Assembly: GCF_000012345.1 (NCBI RefSeq)
Contig: NC_007205.1
Coordinates: forward strand, 1,140,001-1,172,000
Reading direction: 5' to 3'
DNA length: 32,000 bases
Origin: Candidatus Pelagibacter ubique HTCC1062
Lineage (GTDB): Bacteria; Pseudomonadota; Alphaproteobacteria; Pelagibacterales; Pelagibacteraceae
The position numbers and the translations under genes are program-made. Shown here in pieces: positions 20,381 to 26,672 of the stretch. The stretch's first letter is position 1. Every line of letters starts with the position of its first letter. The notes below the pieces were generated by a model. That model did no database searches and was not told where the DNA came from. It was given only the letters and a program-made list of their open reading frames with translations.

Positions 20381-20908
20381 ATGAATTTAAAAGATTATAT
20401 TAGATCTATTCCAGATTATCCAAAAAAAGGAATTTTATTTAGAGATATTACAACTTTAATTAAAGACGCAGATGCATTTGAAGAATGTATTAATCAAATA
20501 ATTGAAAGATCAAAAAATTATAAAATAGATAAAATTGCTGCAATTGAGTCAAGAGGATTTGTATTTGCTTCTGCTGTTTCTTATCTTCTTAAAAAACCTT
20601 TTATTATGTTTAGAAAGAAAAACAAACTTCCGGCTGAAACTCATTCAGTTGATTTTGAATTGGAGTATGGAACTGCAACTATTGAAGTTCATAAAGATTC
20701 AATTGACAAAGATGACTCAGTTTTAATTATAGATGATTTAATAGCAACAGGTGGAACAGCTGAAGCAGCAGCTAAACTTGTGGAAATGTCTAATGCCAAA
20801 ATTGCTGCATTTGTTTTTGCAATTAATCTTTTTGACCTAGGTGGATCTGATAATTTAGTTAAAAAAGGTTATAAGGTTGAAAACTTAATGGATTTTCCAG
20901 GGCATTAA
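20381..20908 (+). CDS. apt: Adenine phosphoribosyltransferase
   Basis: 175 aa. IRSIPDYPKKGILFRDITTL, IAAIESRGFVFASAV and the PRPP loop VLIIDDLIATGGTAEAA are textbook Apt. Confidence 0.92.
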   Translation: MNLKDYIRSIPDYPKKGILFRDITTLIKDADAFEECINQIIERSKNYKIDKIAAIESRGFVFASAVSYLLKKPFIMFRKKNKLPAETHSVDFELEYGTATIEVHKDSIDKDDSVLIIDDLIATGGTAEAAAKLVEMSNAKIAAFVFAINLFDLGGSDNLVKKGYKVENLMDFPGH

Positions 20909-20940: not shown

Positions 20941-22149
20941 ATGAAGCTAAGTTTTGATGAAATATTACTACTTGTAAAAGATAAACAATTTAAAGAATCT
21001 TTAAAATATATAAACAAACTGATATCTGAAAATGGTGATAATTTTAATTATCTACACTTAAAAGGTACACTAGAATTCAATGTAGGTGAATTTTCAAATG
21101 CTATAACAAGCTTTTCATCTGCATTAGAACTAAAAAAAAATGATCATAATATTCATCATTTAAGAGGTATTACTTATTATAACTTAAACAAATTTAGCGA
21201 AGCTAAAAAAGATTTAGAAAAAGCAATTTCATTAGAAAATAATTTTTCTGAAGCTTATTTTTCTCTTGGAGTTTTGTATTTTGAGCATTCTAAAAACACT
21301 GAAGCAATAGAGAGCTTTATAAAATCAATTGAAATAAATAAAAATTTTAAAAAACCAATAAAACATTTAATTAAGGCACTAGCACGTACTAATAATATTA
21401 AAGAAACAAATTCAAGTATTGTATCTAAACATAATGAATTGAATAAAATTAATCTTTATTATAACTCAACTGAATATTTAGATGATAAAATTATAAGTAA
21501 TTTTGTAAAAGAAACAGATGAAATTATTGGAAAAAATTTTCAAGATTTAGATTTTAAAGAAACACAAATTTATAGAAGGAATCAAGATTTTCTAAATTGC
21601 AGAAGACATAAAAAAGTATTTAATACTTATGATGTCATACCCAAATTTTGTTTCAATTGCTATAAGGTTCAAATCGAACCAGATAACTTAGTAGATTTAA
21701 TTAAACTCTATATAATATTTGACAACATTATCTTACCAAAAAACAATATAAGAAAATGTATGATCGAAAATAGAGCAAATATTTCAGGAAATTATAAAGG
21801 ATTAATATATTGTAGTTCCATCGAAGAATCTCAATTAATAGAAAAAAAACTTAACGTAATATTAAAAAATAATTTAAATAAATCAATAGTTTGTAAAATT
21901 AAAAGAGGATGCTCTGAATTTGCATTAAAATATCCTAAATATAATAGTTTTGAAAAAGACTCATTAAATTATAAAGAAGATTGGAAAAATTATGAAGCGC
22001 TAATCGATAACAAGTACTCACACTTAACTTTTGATAAAAAAACAATACCAACAATCAAAGGTATTTCTTTAAACGATGTATTAATAATAAGAAATTGGAT
22101 AACTTTTGCTAAAATGAGAGGTGACGATATTCATAAATTAATCACATAA
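20941..22149 (+). CDS. TPR-repeat protein with an uncharacterised Cys-motif C-terminal domain
   Basis: The N-terminal ~150 aa contain TPR units (AITSFSSALELKKNDHNIHHLRGITYYNLNKFSEAKKDLEKAISLENNFSEAYFSLGVLYFEHSKNTEAIESFIKSIEINKN). The C-terminal ~200 aa contain NCRRHKK...FCFNCYKV and KRGCSEF. I cannot assign a family to that part. Confidence 0.7.
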   Translation: MKLSFDEILLLVKDKQFKESLKYINKLISENGDNFNYLHLKGTLEFNVGEFSNAITSFSSALELKKNDHNIHHLRGITYYNLNKFSEAKKDLEKAISLENNFSEAYFSLGVLYFEHSKNTEAIESFIKSIEINKNFKKPIKHLIKALARTNNIKETNSSIVSKHNELNKINLYYNSTEYLDDKIISNFVKETDEIIGKNFQDLDFKETQIYRRNQDFLNCRRHKKVFNTYDVIPKFCFNCYKVQIEPDNLVDLIKLYIIFDNIILPKNNIRKCMIENRANISGNYKGLIYCSSIEESQLIEKKLNVILKNNLNKSIVCKIKRGCSEFALKYPKYNSFEKDSLNYKEDWKNYEALIDNKYSHLTFDKKTIPTIKGISLNDVLIIRNWITFAKMRGDDIHKLIT

Positions 22150-22228
22150 TAAATATATTGAACTCAATAAATAAAATTAATTACATTAATAAAGAGACAA
22201 AACTACACTAAAGGTTAAAGGTATCTTG

Positions 22229-23077
22229 CTATAAGTACCCAAGTTCTTTCATTTCTACATAAAACTTAAGCTCAATTTCATCTTTGATTTTTTTATTTAA
22301 ATTATTTTCCCAATTATTTTTCGGCCCAAGATTAAAAAATTTTTTCTTTGTATCATTTGTGTCGTAAGCATTTTCATCAAAACCACCTTTTTCCTCTAGG
22401 TTTTGGAGATAATTAAAACTAGTGGTTTTAATAATGTTTTTATTTTTAATTTCATCTGTTTGGATAGGAGTAAATCTTTTAATAAATGCAATAATTTTAT
22501 CTAATTCAGAATTTGTATTATTAATTAAATCTTCATATTTTATTAATAGAAAATTTTCATTATTATTTTTCCAAAAATTATAATGTTCATTCCAAGTACC
22601 TAAAAGAGTTATTAAGCTACCATTATCTAAATCATCCTCTTTTTCAAATTTCGTAATAATTTTTGGAGCAAATAAAAAATTTTTTGAATCTTCTACAGAT
22701 TTACTAAAGTGATTTGAAATTGAATTTACTAAATTTCTAGGATCTCGAGTAATGTATATTGTTGCAAGTGTATTTTTTTTACTAGTAAAGCTGTACTGAC
22801 CAATTTTACAGTTAATATGATGTGTTTTAAAAAATTTTACTTTATTATCTAAATTTATAAAATCTTGCGCAGATTCCCAATATTTTTTAATTTCATGAAT
22901 ATTTTCAAAATCATTTGTAAAATCTTTAAAATACTTTTTACTTGGAAATTGTTTAATTTGATTTAGTAATTCAAATTTAAATACACCATCATTAGTATGC
23001 ATTAAAGCGGCTATTATAGATCTTACCCATGTATTGCCACTTTTAGGGTAAGATGCTAGCCATATAATCATACTCAC
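22229..23077 (-). CDS. PAPS-dependent sulfotransferase family protein
   Basis: 282 aa. 5'-PSB loop WLASYPKSGNTWVRS and 3'-PB motif IYITRDPRNLVNSISNH are the two canonical sulfotransferase PAPS-binding motifs. Confidence 0.88.
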   Translation of the reverse strand: MSMIIWLASYPKSGNTWVRSIIAALMHTNDGVFKFELLNQIKQFPSKKYFKDFTNDFENIHEIKKYWESAQDFINLDNKVKFFKTHHINCKIGQYSFTSKKNTLATIYITRDPRNLVNSISNHFSKSVEDSKNFLFAPKIITKFEKEDDLDNGSLITLLGTWNEHYNFWKNNNENFLLIKYEDLINNTNSELDKIIAFIKRFTPIQTDEIKNKNIIKTTSFNYLQNLEEKGGFDENAYDTNDTKKKFFNLGPKNNWENNLNKKIKDEIELKFYVEMKELGYL

Positions 23078-23149
23078 TTATAATATTTAGATTAAAAAAA
23101 TCAATGTTGCTAAATAATTAAAAATTACAGGTTAAGATCATTTTATTAA

Positions 23150-23194
23150 AAAAATTATAATATTGAAAACTTAATAAATTTTCCAGGGCATTAA
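23150..23194 (+). pseudogene. apt: Relic of the apt 3' end (last ~14 codons plus stop)
   Basis: In-frame reading gives KNYNIENLINFPGH*, against KKGYKVENLMDFPGH* at the end of the live apt gene. It is preceded by an in-frame stop, and its stop codon lies 1 nt from the tRNA fragment. Confidence 0.8.
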
Positions 23195-23195
23195 A

Positions 23196-23248
23196 TGGTA
23201 GCGGGAAGTGGAATCGAACCACTGACCTCAGGCTTATGAGTCCTGCGC
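23196..23248 (-). pseudogene. 3' fragment (53 nt) of tRNA-Met(CAU); direct repeat of 26596..26648 (att-like island boundary)
   Basis: Perfect 53/53 identity with the 3' part of the intact tRNA (anticodon arm through CCA). The sequences diverge completely after 23248/26648. Confidence 0.9.
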
Positions 23249-23311
23249 CATGACCCTTGGAGCCAACGCATCCTGCAAGAACATCTTCAAAACTCCTTTG
23301 TCTCTGCTCTT

Positions 23312-23387
23312 TTCTTTCTAGACTCAGATTTACATAAACTTAGACTCTAGTCAACTTCTATTGGAGCATTGGAGCATGAGTGGAGCA
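23312..23387 (+). repeat. Repeat module R1 (diverged, expanded copy) with three TGGAGCA units
   Basis: The 21-nt core CATTGGAGCATGAGTGGAGCA (23367..23387) is identical to the R2 and R3 cores. R1 has an extra ATTGGAGC unit and a diverged or expanded 5' part that starts with TTCTTTCTAGA (R2/R3 start with TTCTTCTAGA). Confidence 0.8.
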
Positions 23388-23620
23388 CAGATTTTATATC
23401 AATAGAGGTACCAAGTGGATTTCGAAAATTGAAAGTTGTTATGACCCCACCACCCTTTTTTATAAATGGGACTCCTTATATCTATACGTAAATAAGAATG
23501 TAAAAATATTATTGCTATTCTTGTAAGAGAAAGTGGTTTTTAAATATCATTAGTTTATTAAACCTAAAATGGACGTCTTTTGATATAAAAAGATACATCA
23601 AGTCAATTATAATTTTAAAA

Positions 23621-24238
23621 ATGAAAGTTATAAATAATAAAAAAGGTTTTACCTTAATTGAATTATTAGTGGTAGTTGCCATCATTGGTATTTTATCATC
23701 TGTCGGGGTTGTTGCTTATAATGGGTATACAGCTGGGGCTAAAGAATCAGCTTGCAAAGGTAATTTTAGAACCTTAGTTAAATCTGTTTATGAAAATATA
23801 ATGTGGTGTGAGCTTAACCCAACAATTAATTTTATAGGGGGTAATGATAAACAAGTTTGGGAATATGATTGTAATACTATGTTCGTTGGCGGCATGTCAG
23901 TTTCGTCTCAGCTTGGGTACACGACAAATGAAAAAATAGCCCACCTTACTATAACTGAAATTAGTAATCGAGATAGACATAGAGAACCAGACTCAACAAT
24001 AGGTTCAAGAACAACACTTAACACGATTTCTAATCCCTACACTGGTCGTTATGTTTATGATGACACACCCAGTGAATATTATTATGGAGATAAATATGAT
24101 ATGAGAGGTAAATTATCTCTTAGAAAAAGAGATAGTAGTGGAAATGAATTAAGCAATAATTGGCAGTCAGAGGGACAACTGTATCTAATAACTAGATGTG
24201 GTGATAAGGTGATAGAACACGAATTTGATATCTATTGA
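23621..24238 (+). CDS. Type IV pilin-like protein (prepilin N-terminal cleavage/methylation domain), paralogue 1
   Basis: MKVINNKKG/FTLIELLVVVAIIGILSSVGVVAY has a short basic leader, the G/F cleavage site, Glu5 and a hydrophobic helix. The C-terminal domain is unique and has 4 Cys. Confidence 0.85.
   Translation: MKVINNKKGFTLIELLVVVAIIGILSSVGVVAYNGYTAGAKESACKGNFRTLVKSVYENIMWCELNPTINFIGGNDKQVWEYDCNTMFVGGMSVSSQLGYTTNEKIAHLTITEISNRDRHREPDSTIGSRTTLNTISNPYTGRYVYDDTPSEYYYGDKYDMRGKLSLRKRDSSGNELSNNWQSEGQLYLITRCGDKVIEHEFDIY
23645..23692 (+). repeat. 48-nt block identical between the two pilin genes (copy 1)
   Basis: GGTTTTACCTTAATTGAATTATTAGTGGTAGTTGCCATCATTGGTATT is 48/48 identical to 25714..25761. 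Nucleotide identity drops abruptly after the block even though the proteins stay homologous for about 20 more residues. Confidence 0.9.
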
Positions 24239-24251
24239 AAATTTATATGTT

Positions 24252-24302
24252 TTCTTCTAGATAACGCTATGACCAATTCTCATTGGAGCATGAGTGGAGC
24301 AA
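24252..24302 (+). repeat. Repeat module R2 (51 nt) 13 nt downstream of pilin 1
   Basis: TTCTTCTAGATAACGCTATGACCAATTCTCATTGGAGCATGAGTGGAGCAA is 50/51 identical to R3 (26503..26553). It contains TCTAGA, the inverted repeat CCAAT/ATTGG, and two TGGAGCA units spaced 11 nt start to start. Confidence 0.9.
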
Positions 24303-24384
24303 AAAAAGTTAGTTCCAATCACTAACAGCTTTAACTTATCAAAATTATTAAAAGCTTTCAAATAAAACCCAAAATAAACATAGT

Positions 24385-24786
24385 ATGACTTTGATTACAT
24401 TAAATATAAGTATATATTTTAAAATTATGACTCAAACACTATTTGAAAAATATGGCGGAAAAAAAACAGTTGGTCAAATTGTTATTAATTTTTATCAAAA
24501 GCTTATGGCTGATGAAAATTTAAAAAAATTTTTTACAAATTCTGATATGAAAGTTTTGATTTCACACCAAACTAATTTCATTTCCCAAGCTTTAGGTGGG
24601 CCAAAAGAATATACTGGTCTTGATATGAAAACTGCTCATCAAGGCATGAAAATATCTCAAGAAGACTTTAATGGAGTTGCTGGACATCTAAAACAAACCT
24701 TGGAAGAACTAAATGTTGAAAGCCAAGATGTTGACACCATCATTGGTGTTGTCGCTCCACTTTCAGAACATATTGTATCAAAATAA
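24385..24786 (+). CDS. Truncated (2-on-2) haemoglobin, group I (trHbN-like)
   Basis: LFEKYGGKKTVGQIVINFYQKLMADENLKKFF...HQTNFISQALGGPKEYTGLDMKTAHQGMKISQEDFNGVAGHL shows both Gly-Gly hinges, the B9-B10 Phe-Tyr and a proximal His context. The likely real start is MTQTLFEKYGG at 24427. Confidence 0.85.
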   Translation: MTLITLNISIYFKIMTQTLFEKYGGKKTVGQIVINFYQKLMADENLKKFFTNSDMKVLISHQTNFISQALGGPKEYTGLDMKTAHQGMKISQEDFNGVAGHLKQTLEELNVESQDVDTIIGVVAPLSEHIVSK

Positions 24787-24825
24787 CAGAATTCATAATT
24801 AATAAATTTTGGCAATATTTATTTA

Positions 24826-25692
24826 ATGATAAAAATAAATAATTGGGAAGACTTAATAGCATTAGCAAAAGAACAAGGGCTCACACCTAAGGAAGCATGG
24901 GAAAGAATTGAAAAAACAAATCTAAAATTTTTAAATAGAAAAAGTTCAGCAGAAAAAGAACTTAAAAAAGGAACAAGAGTACAAAAACTAATGTTTCCAA
25001 AGAATAATGAGGAAAATATTCTTTTAGCAAAAAATGTACCTTCTTTGGATGTTTCTGGTGATTTTTATAATTTTAAAAATATAGGAGATAAAATCTTTTT
25101 TACTCTTGGCGATGTTTCTGGCAAAGGAGTGGATGCAGGACTCATTATGGCAAGAGTTACCGCATTGTTTGAAATCCTTGTTGAGGAAAAAAAGAGTCTT
25201 ATTGAAATTGTGTCATTAATAAATGATAATTTATATAATTTACGTTCAGGAAAATTTTTAACAGGAATATTTGCTGTATACGATAAAAAATCTAAAAATC
25301 TTGAATTTATTAATGCTGGCCATTCAGAAAGTATAATTTCAGAGAATAAAAAAATTACTGAACATGTTTCTAGCAAAATTCCGCCGCTTGGAGTTCAGCC
25401 TATTAATCTTGATTTAAATAGTGTTTTAAATAAAATTTCATTGAAGGATAAAATTTTTTATATATACAGCGATGGCTTAAGCGAAAGTAAAGATTTTGAA
25501 GGAAATGAAATTGAAGCTGAGGGTATAATAGATTTGTTAAATAAGAATAAAGATCACGATATTGCAACACAATTGGAAAATATTTTTATAGAAATTTCCG
25601 CGTTTGGTGCATTGCAAAATATGTCAAATGAAGAACAAAGTATAATTAAGGATGATCTTACAATTTTAGCTATTAATGGGAAAAATATTTAA
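24826..25692 (+). CDS. PP2C-family SpoIIE/RsbU-like serine phosphatase with a short N-terminal region and no recognisable sensor domain
   Basis: VQKLMFP...LDVSGDFYNF...FFTLGDVSGKGVDAGLIMARV...FLTGIFAVYD...LEFINAGHSE...PPLGV...IYSDGLSES...KDDLTILAI is the full SpoIIE-domain motif series. Confidence 0.85.
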   Translation: MIKINNWEDLIALAKEQGLTPKEAWERIEKTNLKFLNRKSSAEKELKKGTRVQKLMFPKNNEENILLAKNVPSLDVSGDFYNFKNIGDKIFFTLGDVSGKGVDAGLIMARVTALFEILVEEKKSLIEIVSLINDNLYNLRSGKFLTGIFAVYDKKSKNLEFINAGHSESIISENKKITEHVSSKIPPLGVQPINLDLNSVLNKISLKDKIFYIYSDGLSESKDFEGNEIEAEGIIDLLNKNKDHDIATQLENIFIEISAFGALQNMSNEEQSIIKDDLTILAINGKNI

Positions 25693-25695
25693 TCA

Positions 25696-26454
25696 ATGAA
25701 AAAAATTAAAAATGGTTTTACCTTAATTGAATTATTAGTGGTAGTTGCCATCATTGGTATTCTTGCAAGTGTAGGTATTGTTAGTTTTCAAGGTTACACT
25801 AAAATGGCAAAGAACAGGGTGCTTGTTGCAAATTGGAAAACAATTTCAAAAGTAATTGAGTTAGAATTAGCTGCTGCAAACAATGGTCTTGATAGTTTTA
25901 TTGCAGAATATGATGAAGATGGAAATATGGTTAGTGAAAAAATGGATGGAAATACAACTTGTAATAATTTTGCATTTTCAGTCCAACAACATTTTAGTCA
26001 TTTTAAAAACCCATACAATCTAGAATGGGAGTCTGTAACAGTTGATACATTAGCGCAATCACAACATAGGAAAGGACAAATTCAATTAGTGTGCTATTCA
26101 CATTTTGCAAGTTTCGGTGACGGTGGAGGATGTCCTATTTCATCTGATGCATGTAGATTGTTGTTGATTGCTTATAAAGAAGATAGAGGACGATGGAATA
26201 CACCTGATGGAAAGTGTGATAATACAATTGTTTCAACCACTGGTGATGGCTGGCAACGTAATAAGAGAGAATTTGTAAATGATTGTTATAATCAAATACT
26301 TGTAGGTGGAGACCAAAGAGAAAGTCAAGCTCAAGCACAATCTGATTGTGGTTGGGATTCAAGTATCCATGGCTCTTGGGCAGTAAATCAAAATAGTATC
26401 AGAGATGAAGCAGGTGGAAAATGTTCAGGTTCAAGTGGAACACCTTGTTCTTAA
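25696..26454 (+). CDS. Type IV pilin-like protein, paralogue 2 (Cys-rich C-terminal domain)
   Basis: MKKIKNG/FTLIELLVVVAIIGILASVGIVSFQGY has a prepilin leader and methylation motif. The unique 200-aa C-terminal domain has 9 Cys. The gene starts 3 nt after the phosphatase stop. Confidence 0.85.
   Translation: MKKIKNGFTLIELLVVVAIIGILASVGIVSFQGYTKMAKNRVLVANWKTISKVIELELAAANNGLDSFIAEYDEDGNMVSEKMDGNTTCNNFAFSVQQHFSHFKNPYNLEWESVTVDTLAQSQHRKGQIQLVCYSHFASFGDGGGCPISSDACRLLLIAYKEDRGRWNTPDGKCDNTIVSTTGDGWQRNKREFVNDCYNQILVGGDQRESQAQAQSDCGWDSSIHGSWAVNQNSIRDEAGGKCSGSSGTPCS
25714..25761 (+). repeat. 48-nt block identical between the two pilin genes (copy 2)
   Basis: 48/48 identity with 23645..23692. Confidence 0.9.
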
Positions 26455-26502
26455 ATTTTTAATTAATCTGTTATCTAACACGTGCTTCTCACTTGTTATT
26501 TC

Positions 26503-26553
26503 TTCTTCTAGATAACGCAATGACCAATTCTCATTGGAGCATGAGTGGAGCAA
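26503..26553 (+). repeat. Repeat module R3 (51 nt) downstream of pilin 2 and 42 nt from the tRNA 3' end
   Basis: 50/51 identical to R2, with TGGAGCA at 26535..26541 and 26546..26552. Confidence 0.9.
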
Positions 26554-26595
26554 TTAATATTTGAAAATGTTCAACCTTAAATAAGGCTTGTTAAT

Positions 26596-26672
26596 TGGTA
26601 GCGGGAAGTGGAATCGAACCACTGACCTCAGGCTTATGAGTCCTGCGCTCTAACCGACTGAGCTACCCCGCC
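26596..26672 (-). tRNA. tRNA with CAU anticodon (elongator Met by default; Ile2/lysidine identity cannot be excluded), CCA encoded
   Basis: Minus-strand sequence GGCGGGG-TA-GCTC-AGTCGGTTA-GAGC-G-CAGGA-CTCATAA-GCCTG-AGGTC-AGTGG-TTCGATT-CCACT-TCCCGCT-A-CCA folds into a 77-nt cloverleaf. The acceptor stem has two G-U pairs, and there is an A31/G39 mismatch at the loop-proximal end of the anticodon stem. It lacks initiator features (no C1-A72 mismatch, no three G-C pairs in the anticodon stem). Confidence 0.9.

Follow-up and report, generated by a model that had tools for sequence, protein, structure and literature searches.

A pilin islet beside tRNA-Met in Candidatus Pelagibacter ubique HTCC1062 is probably an integrase-less remnant of small integrative elements

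We analyzed a window of 32,000 nucleotides (nt) from Candidatus Pelagibacter ubique HTCC1062 (NC_007205.1, positions 1,140,001 to 1,172,000 of the forward strand; coordinates below are positions within this window). In it, a small islet of pilin, globin, and phosphatase genes lies between an intact tRNA-Met gene and a displaced copy of the 3' half of this gene, and three copies of a short non-coding module (R1, R2, and R3) are distributed over the islet. The islet is probably what remains, without the integrase gene, of one or several small integrative elements that a tyrosine integrase had inserted into tRNA-Met. Judging from sequence comparisons, R1 is the P' arm of a split attachment site, R3 is the P arm together with the fossil of the first ca. 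27 codons of the integrase gene, and the TGGAGCA units within the modules are most likely arm-type binding sites of this integrase.

The window has a G+C content of about 30%, and its gene order of TPR protein, sulfotransferase, pilin, globin, phosphatase, pilin, small open reading frame (ORF), and sarcosine/dimethylglycine dehydrogenase is the one tabulated as hypervariable region 4 (HVR4) of HTCC1062, with SAR11_1216-1219 as the islet cargo (PMC2217521). HVR4 is one of four hypervariable regions of this strain and has been described as “flanked by tRNA genes” (PMC2217521). Earlier studies of SAR11 had remarked on the neighboring tRNA genes of HVR4, on partial tRNA repeats inside some of the islands, and on an almost complete lack of integrases (PMC2217521, PMC11796062), though the origin of HVR4 beyond its flanking tRNA genes had remained open. 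The comparisons presented here show it as a putative fossil of tRNA-Met-specific integrative elements. We found no description of the repeat units or of the att arms of HVR4 in the searchable literature.

All three modules share a 21-nt core, CATTGGAGCATGAGTGGAGCA, on the plus strand at 23367-23387, 24281-24301, and 26532-26552. Allowing up to three mismatches, no further match exists in the 32 kb, and none is expected from 100 shuffles. The unit TGGAGCA occurs 10 times in the window compared to 2.7 expected occurrences, with copies starting at 23362, 23370, and 23381 in R1, at 24284 and 24295 in R2, and at 26535 and 26546 in R3. A first-pass annotation made from the letters of this DNA had described these units as phased by 11 nt, which holds for R2, R3, and the last pair of R1 but not for the extra R1 unit with its spacing of 8 nt. 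The 50 identities out of 51 that it counted between R2 and R3 were reproduced, and this repeat can be extended to 57 nt at 95% identity (24246-24302 versus 26497-26553; alignment score reached by 0 of 2,000 shuffles). The 5' half of R1 had been taken for a diverged version of the R2/R3 5' half, a relationship that we could not recover because local alignments were no better than those of shuffles (262 and 111 of 2,000 reached the score); homology of this part of R1 to the integrase was likewise not significant. The placement of the modules is non-random as first described: R3 ends 42 nt from the tRNA gene, R1 starts ca. 63 nt past the tRNA-half copy, and R2 and R3 lie downstream of pilin genes, 8 nt past the stop codon of pilin 1 and 43 nt past that of pilin 2.

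The left halves of R2 and R3 can be traced to a lost integrase gene. In a related locus with the same synteny as the window (L004; loci are given L numbers throughout), the core lies 42 nt from the tRNA-Met 3' end and precedes, by 11 nt, the ATG of an intact ORF for a tyrosine integrase of 327 amino acids. The 65-90 nt upstream of the R3 core align with the 5' end of such integrase genes, from the ribosome-binding site through the start codon to about codon 27 (z = 8.7 against the 5' region of the L005 gene, a score reached by 0 of 1,000 shuffles, and z = 4.7 against L004). In R3, the start codon has been lost, the Shine-Dalgarno sequence is mutated, and the ca. 27 codons have decayed, and R2 contains the core-proximal 37 nt of this fossil including its derived changes. 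The first-pass annotation had stated that its reading would fall if the repeat were the conserved tail of an annotated small gene; this is half the case, since what R2 and R3 have preserved in their left halves is the head of a lost integrase gene.

The single “module grammar” of a TCTAGA palindrome, a CCAAT/ATTGG inverted repeat, and TGGAGCA units that had been proposed for all three modules is not supported, since the first two features of R2 and R3 fall into the decayed integrase leader and first codons. TCTAGA corresponds to the codons TTT AGA of intact integrase genes (TCTAAA on the plus strand), and the CCAAT arm occupies the place of the spacer and ribosome-binding site; in intact relatives, the stretch spanning codons, start codon, and ribosome-binding site reads TCTAAACGTTGCCATTTAATTTACCTC. 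In R1-type arms, the sequence at the TCTAGA position is variable (tctaaattc, tctatatta, or tctgagtcc). Because these positions map to integrase codons and to the spacer and ribosome-binding site, TCTAGA and CCAAT/ATTGG are apparently by-products of decay and incidental to the module. As a separate observation, a CCAAT-N3-4-ATTGG inverted repeat adjoins the first unit both in the window (24270-24285 and 26521-26536) and in R4-type arms of four loci (L033, L067, L068, and L080), and thus occurs in two differing upstream flanks, the decayed integrase leader and a “gaaccaatgtc” P' arm, while it is not present in intact integrase leaders or in R1.

Beyond the window, we scanned 185,579 genomes (one per species) with a 20-mer of the core and found it in seven stretches, and a metagenome scan yielded at least 120 more. 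Five of the seven are Pelagibacter-type tRNA-Met contexts with a single match each, including one complete genome of 1.36 Mb and one stretch filed under another label of a metagenome-assembled genome (MAG; L003). The other two are in unrelated contexts (Cupriavidus, L001, and an Alphaproteobacteria MAG, L006) and look like chance matches, of which we estimate about one to be expected for a 20-mer. The genome-wide check that had been suggested for the core consequently gives one match per Pelagibacter genome, located at tRNA-Met, and not the scatter of a repetitive extragenic palindromic (REP)-like element.

Among the matches listed, which cover about 130 Pelagibacter loci from genomes and metagenomes, about 138 core copies could be classified. 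In 44 of them an integrase start lies upstream and the tRNA downstream, another 13 combine an integrase start with a downstream tRNA-Met that lacks its 3' end, nine have the decayed leader of the window upstream and the tRNA downstream, and 18 are of the R1 type with tRNA half, conserved block, and three units. The remaining copies are mosaics of known flanks, other contexts, and a few unrelated chance-like matches. The same matches include 39 full-length integrase ORFs of ca. 327 amino acids that start 11-12 nt from the core, eight that run off their contig, and some 16 truncated remnants, and the core typically lies 42-43 nt from the tRNA-Met 3' end. The integrase matches Pfam Phage_integrase (2.6e-21) and is related to 784 protein clusters that, where named, are tyrosine recombinases or integrases of Pelagibacter. 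No relative above 33% identity was found among the 50,697 phage records of INPHARED or in IMG/VR, and the core was not found in IMG/VR. A phage origin was rejected on both grounds.

The predicted attachment site is preserved in one piece in several loci. L081 and L057, which belong to the family of the window, combine an intact integrase, 12 nt, two units, 42 nt, the tRNA 3' half, a decayed 5' half, and an R1 block with three units, with a core-to-core distance of 235 nt. In L081, this integrase-bearing sister element stands in tandem next to an identical R1 arm. When shifted by 6,977 nt, a third locus, L213, matches itself at 100% identity, a sign of a circular (or concatemeric) molecule; it contains four TGGTCC units, 123 nt, the tRNA-Met 3' half, 29 nt, two units, and an integrase with 60% identity. 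Its gene content comprises this tRNA-Met-type integrase, an AAA_25 primase-helicase-like gene, and about eight small ORFs, and it looks like a SAR11 integrative element in its free form. In the window and in L213 alike, 123 nt separate the anticodon from the nearest P' unit. Across 127 tRNA-type anchors, TGGAGCA is found in forward orientation only, from -110 to -70 and from +100 to +140 relative to the anticodon.

These arrangements support the earlier suggestion of recombinase arm-type sites, with R1 and R3 as the P' and P arms of a split attP whose units behave in an arm-like manner across many related loci. Since both cores are intact around a single tRNA half in L081, L057, and L213, the insertion, judging from sequence, happened in the tRNA. 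The 53-nt identity block of the window ends at the anticodon stem, beyond which identity falls at once to about 48%, and there are two classes of elements, one restoring the 3' part of the tRNA and the other its 5' part, all of which is consistent with a crossover separate from the units and within the anticodon region. The window has kept both att junctions, with the 53-nt core at each end and the P arm of two units and the P' arm of three units exact. It encodes no integrase (see below), and the islet may be described as an att-flanked fossil on this basis.

The second class of elements was observed in six loci (L027, L029, L032, L039, L042, and L089), where the sequence from 43 nt past the core onward is a dehydrogenase-side tRNA-Met without the 3' acceptor and T-arm strand. 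In these loci, a functional tRNA has to be restored at the opposite junction, and matching attP sites with the tRNA 5' part are present in L083, L093, and L061.

The units behave as recognition sites of a protein would, evolving together with the integrase. Within arms that were not picked by our search pattern, the units are kept and the 4-nt spacer between them varies (tgag, tcag, ccag, tgtg, ttag, atat, or ctat), and in one variant family both units are replaced by GACGCA in the P and P' arms alike. Integrases of 56-63% identity that were fetched by protein sequence alone all adjoin tRNA-Met, and the ribosome-binding site of each is closely preceded by a pair of 7-nt direct repeats in 11-nt phase. 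The units of these relatives are specific to their lineage, i.e., TGGTCCA, TGCGTC(T/A), TGGCACA/TGCCACA, or TGATCACA. Six lineages have six unit types in one layout with 11-nt phase. The N-terminal strands of the integrases differ in step with the unit type, and the TGCGTC type was found twice together with a MAGYRKR N-terminus (L040 and L211). Because unit sequence changes with integrase lineage, the operator of a response regulator, which the first-pass annotation had offered as another possibility, is unlikely.

In addition, other families of direct repeats (GTGTGCCAAG and GAGTCAAGA) were seen ca. 60-90 nt past the tRNA 5' end on the dehydrogenase side in L005, L050, L115, L008, and L051. 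They are placed like the three-unit TGGAGCA arms of L013, L055, and L125, which suggests further integrase lineages on this tRNA. A G+C-rich hairpin (e.g., gaccgcgggcttattgggacaggttcccgcggtc) follows just after the P' units in L083, L049, L031, L059, L013, L055, and L125, and none is found in the window.

A candidate arm-binding domain is predicted for the integrase. An AlphaFold model (predicted local distance difference test, pLDDT, of 84.5) places three beta strands and a helix in residues 1-45 (pLDDT 76-85), ahead of the core-binding and catalytic domains, and aligns end to end over 344 columns with full-length lambda Int (1z1g).

Based on these comparisons, we propose that the integrase would recombine DNA within the anticodon-stem/loop region of tRNA-Met, using an attP with the order integrase gene, 12 nt, two TGGAGCA units, 42 nt, tRNA-Met 3' half, about 123 nt, and three TGGAGCA units. 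Integration would split this site, leaving the three-unit P' arm (R1) beside the displaced tRNA half at the far junction while R3, the two-unit P arm, would remain flanked by the integrase and the rebuilt tRNA. The units would be bound by the small N-terminal domain of the integrase, which would link arms and core while the element integrates or excises. With the P-arm pair adjoining its ribosome-binding site, the integrase would probably also repress its own gene. In HTCC1062, the integrase gene would have been deleted down to about 27 decayed codons, and R2 would be a copy of the decayed leader and core at the point where two cargo segments were fused. The features of the islet are listed in Table 1.

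Table 1. Features of the tRNA-Met islet, ordered by position in the window
Feature	Position	Strand	Basis or remark
Exact 53-nt copy of the tRNA-Met 3' half, from the 3' end through the anticodon stem; putative att core (B-O) at the distal island junction	23196-23248	-	Equals 26596-26648
Conserved putative P' arm block containing R1	23249-23440	+	ca. 95% conserved in L002 and L007 amid unrelated flanks; at least 18 metagenome loci
Degenerate stretch resembling a tRNA 5' half	23249-23272		Directly after the 53-nt copy
R1 units, three TGGAGCA; proposed P' arm-type integrase sites	23362-23387	+	
Pilin 1	23621-24238	+	Pfam N_methyl
R2, inside the islet where the pilin-1 segment meets the globin-PP2C-pilin-2 segment	24246-24302	+	Decayed integrase leader (about 24257-24280) and units at 24284 and 24295
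Truncated-globin-like protein	24427-24786	+	Pfam Bac_globin
SpoIIE/PP2C phosphatase	24826-25692	+	Pfam SpoIIE
Pilin 2	25696-26454	+	Pfam N_methyl
Fossil 5' end of a tyrosine integrase gene, overlapping the pilin-2 stop codon	26445-26531	-	Alignment to intact integrase 5' region
R3 units, two TGGAGCA in 11-nt phase; proposed P arm-type sites	26535-26552	+	
42-nt spacer between P-arm units and tRNA 3' end	26554-26595		42-43 nt in most loci
Intact tRNA-Met (CAT), proposed integration target at the proximal junction (P-O-B')	26596-26672	-	ARAGORN; Rfam tRNA 65.8 bits

The two sub-cassettes that the modules had been thought to delimit are supported in part. In L106 and L117, which are 98-100% identical to the window, the upstream flank of R1 is joined to the downstream flank of R2 exactly at the core and the pilin-1 segment is missing, but other islet variants break in the conserved 5' end of the pilin genes, at 24256, or at 24355. 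The cores are therefore true breakpoints in population data, without being the sole ones. The globin-phosphatase segment natively ends, on its distal side, with the downstream flank of R2; this flank stands behind other upstream flanks in L033, L106, L117, and L024 and, in L033, follows a different two-unit P' arm directly past the tRNA half. A simple route to R2 would start from a tandem like that of L081, where the stretch from the P core of one element to the P' core of its neighbor would be deleted, with loss of the middle tRNA half and fusion of two elements. Alternatively, R2 could have arisen by duplication or conversion together with a pilin gene, and the data favor neither route. Recombination by the integrase at the core is not needed for any of these variants and is disfavored by the intact P-O-P' junctions.

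The two pilin genes have a common 5' stretch of 99 nt with 82% identity, including about 48 identical nt (23632-23730 and 25701-25799). In L024, the pilin bodies are exchanged compared to the window with breakpoints in this 5' stretch and in the R module, and the cluster sits between kdsB and pyrG without any tRNA-Met. Fusions of a pilin-1 5' end to a pilin-2 body were seen in L064 and L087. Pilins recur as cargo at the tRNA-Met locus, though the association of the modules with pilin genes is secondary given that most core copies have no pilin nearby.

Several points weigh against an origin of the islet from tRNA-Met-specific elements with arm-type sites. The related loci were gathered via an exact match to the core, so that its apparent invariance is partly a sampling effect. 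R2 adds no independent integrase fossil: the derived mutations of R3 are also found in its upstream flank, making it a copy of the R3 leader, and alone this flank is not significantly similar to the integrase, to which it is tied only via its 95% identity to R3. For the arm-binding domain, the evidence is a predicted fold together with Pfam Arm-DNA-bind_4 matches of eight of 12 members, which stay below the curated cut-off (best E = 4.6e-4). Moreover, the flanks of the core form a mosaic in which upstream flanks (R1up, R4up, decayed-integrase, or integrase) are combined with various downstream flanks (R1dn, R2dn, or tRNA), which the classical model alone does not predict and which calls for additional deletions or exchanges between repeated cores. 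Finally, tblastn (E ≤ 10) detected no integrase in the 32 kb, and any present-day function would consequently need an integrase in trans. It is conceivable, if doubtful, that the islet is still a working cis-element whose intact att cores and arm repeats would allow its pilin and globin-phosphatase segments to be excised, moved, or fused by integrases of sister elements that are co-resident or arrive from outside, such as the one in L081, with the repeated arm cores as preferred break-and-join points. A circular junction of the integrase-less islet was not seen among the 120 fetched contigs, in a scan that was not designed for it.

Other explanations for the modules account for part of these data. 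The core could have no role beyond that of a promoter, operator, or 5' leader for the integrase gene, read by RNA polymerase or a regulator other than the integrase, with all other copies as passive duplicates. This would fit its constant position beside the ribosome-binding site, at 11-12 nt from the integrase ATG, and its persistence beside decayed integrase genes. However, three to four of the same units lie ca. 250 nt away across the tRNA core at a conserved distance and with no gene start there, both arms change their unit sequence jointly and in line with the integrase lineage, and a consensus promoter scan over the modules found no promoter-like site, leaving this explanation unlikely. 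We consider it quite improbable that the 21-nt core itself is the crossover site of an integron-like system that gains and loses cassettes between cores, with the tRNA halves as old scars. Flank types are indeed shuffled exactly at the core, with all four R1up/R4up and R1dn/R2dn combinations present, L106 and L117 lack the pilin-1 segment with a junction at the core, and the core spacer and the anticodon loop region have ATGAGT in common. However, new integrase-bearing elements keep both cores around a single tRNA half (L081, L057, and L213), and the units are direct repeats instead of the inverted repeats expected around the crossover of a tyrosine recombinase. No attC-like hairpin was found, and integron-integrase models score far below their cut-offs (TIGR02249, 34.8 versus 265 bits; PRK15417, 12 versus 435). 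Many islet variants also break outside the cores, and deletion between 21-nt direct repeats suffices to explain the mosaics.

The position of R2 and R3 after pilin genes, the common 99-nt 5' stretch of the pilins, the exchange of bodies in L024, and the recurrence of pilins as cargo could also indicate that R2 and R3 serve as 3' homology modules for pilin replacement, acting with the conserved pilin 5' end like the repeat downstream of Neisseria pil loci. Yet most core copies lie beside an integrase with no pilin nearby, pilins occur without a module in L069, L081, L049, and as the second pilin of L024, and the left half of the module is demonstrably derived from the integrase, which makes such a role very unlikely. 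Short conserved intergenic repeats downstream of genes are often generic REP-like repeats, terminators, or small structured RNAs, but we give hardly any credence to this for R1-R3. A dispersed repeat is at odds with the genome scan, where five of the seven stretches are Pelagibacter-type tRNA-Met loci with one match per record, the complete genome included. As the first-pass annotation had surmised, the modules do not look like terminators: no terminator-like site was found over them, RNA folding of R1-R3 on both strands gave no significant structure (z from -1.2 to +0.3), and Rfam returned only the tRNA and no other RNA family at the modules. A tRNA-like or transfer-messenger RNA (tmRNA)-like gene in the R1 block was likewise dismissed because both ARAGORN and Rfam are empty there, the block consisting of the tRNA 3' half and a decayed 5' half.

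The islet can be compared to several known systems. Heterobivalent integrases of the lambda type use an attP with the arm-type sites P1, P2, and P'1-3 (structures 1z1g and 5j0n). Like lambda attP, the site proposed here would have short direct-repeat sites on both arms, ca. 60-130 nt from the crossover core and spanning ca. 250 bp, and integration would split the arms between the junctions. Like lambda Int, the integrase has a core-binding domain and a catalytic domain, and a small N-terminal beta-sheet domain is predicted for it. Unlike in lambda, the unit is TGGAGCA in two plus three copies, the core is the anticodon region of tRNA-Met, the P-arm pair adjoins the integrase ribosome-binding site, and the carriers are tiny and not phages (a 3.5-kb element in L072 and the 7-kb circle of L213) with no excisionase gene evident. 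By this analogy, the mechanism would be conventionally lambda-like and the site of an ordinary kind.

Genomic islands that integrate into tRNA genes and duplicate their 3' part are generally known. The islet resembles them in the 53-nt copy of the tRNA 3' half at its far end, in the integrase beside the intact tRNA of relatives, and in arrays built by accretion. It differs from them as described in the arms and repeat units defined here and in the second class of elements (L027, L029, and L083), whose members bring along the 5' part of the tRNA, so that the tRNA at the old site is left broken. Cis-mobilizable elements (CIMEs) of streptococci are att-flanked, integrase-less derivatives of integrative elements. 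The islet is similar in having kept both att junctions with their arm repeats while losing the recombinase gene and in the tandem presence of a same-family integrase element in relatives (L081). By sequence, it fits the definition of an att-flanked element without integrase, whereas mobilization in trans is only a possibility here. With integron arrays, the elements of this family share an integrase beside small cargo segments that are parted by a repeated short site and gained or lost at these repeats, but they have direct repeats in place of a hairpin-forming attC, their integrase is not of the integron type, and they insert into a tRNA. Wilhelm et al. had found no attC in SAR11 hypervariable regions (PMC2217521), and partial tRNA repeats have been noted inside SAR11 islands (PMC11796062). 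HTVC019P-type pelagiphages infect SAR11 hosts and encode tyrosine integrases that target tRNA-Cys, tRNA-Leu, and tRNA-Arg, and some of them complement the disrupted tRNA with a phage-borne part (bioRxiv 10.1101/410191). The elements described here are unlike these phages in their different target, tRNA-Met, in their unrelated integrase, and in the absence of the core from IMG/VR.

Recent SAR11 work has reported almost no canonical mobile elements. The related protein clusters with their arm-site repeat per lineage show what appears to be a large family of tRNA-Met integrases circulating in marine Pelagibacter. The defined attP pattern (two units, tRNA half, 123 nt, and three to four units) can be used to search for further elements and their scars. 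In addition, the proposed origin offers a testable mechanism for the turnover of pilin and other surface genes and would explain the build-up of a variable pilin islet. If the islet were indeed a working cis-element, the streamlined SAR11 bacteria, which are thought to be devoid of mobile elements, would have a dedicated exchange of surface-gene cassettes at tRNA-Met. The relevance of these results is mainly to SAR11 genome biology.

Some smaller observations concern the surroundings of the islet. The ca. 65 nt to the left of the tRNA half (23130-23194) are a decayed copy of 20850-20908, the 3' end of an adenine phosphoribosyltransferase-like gene (20381-20908), and the two copies of this gene end enclose a low-G+C block with the TPR and sulfotransferase genes (20941-23077), suggesting that the block was inserted separately. 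The adenine phosphoribosyltransferase 3' end followed by the tRNA-Met 3'-half fragment is also found in L002, L033, and others. The 42-nt spacer of the window and its counterparts in about 40 loci contain a short hairpin with a conserved TTATTTAA loop and then a short T-run. The stem sequence of this hairpin is lineage-dependent, and RNAalifold on the 42-nt spacers found no consensus structure, with stems in different registers; the hairpin may be the terminator of the tRNA or a site for a bending protein. On the minus strand of the P' arm, a strongly conserved AAGGAG (reverse complement of 23293-23298) is followed after 8 nt by an ATG at 23284, which opens a 16-codon ORF (MFLQDALAPRVMAQDS) whose stop codon is the TAA of the anticodon loop (23234-23298 in total). 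The motif and the 16-codon frame were seen again in other lineages and could be a leader peptide, a site for an accessory protein, or a coincidence of the pseudo-tRNA.

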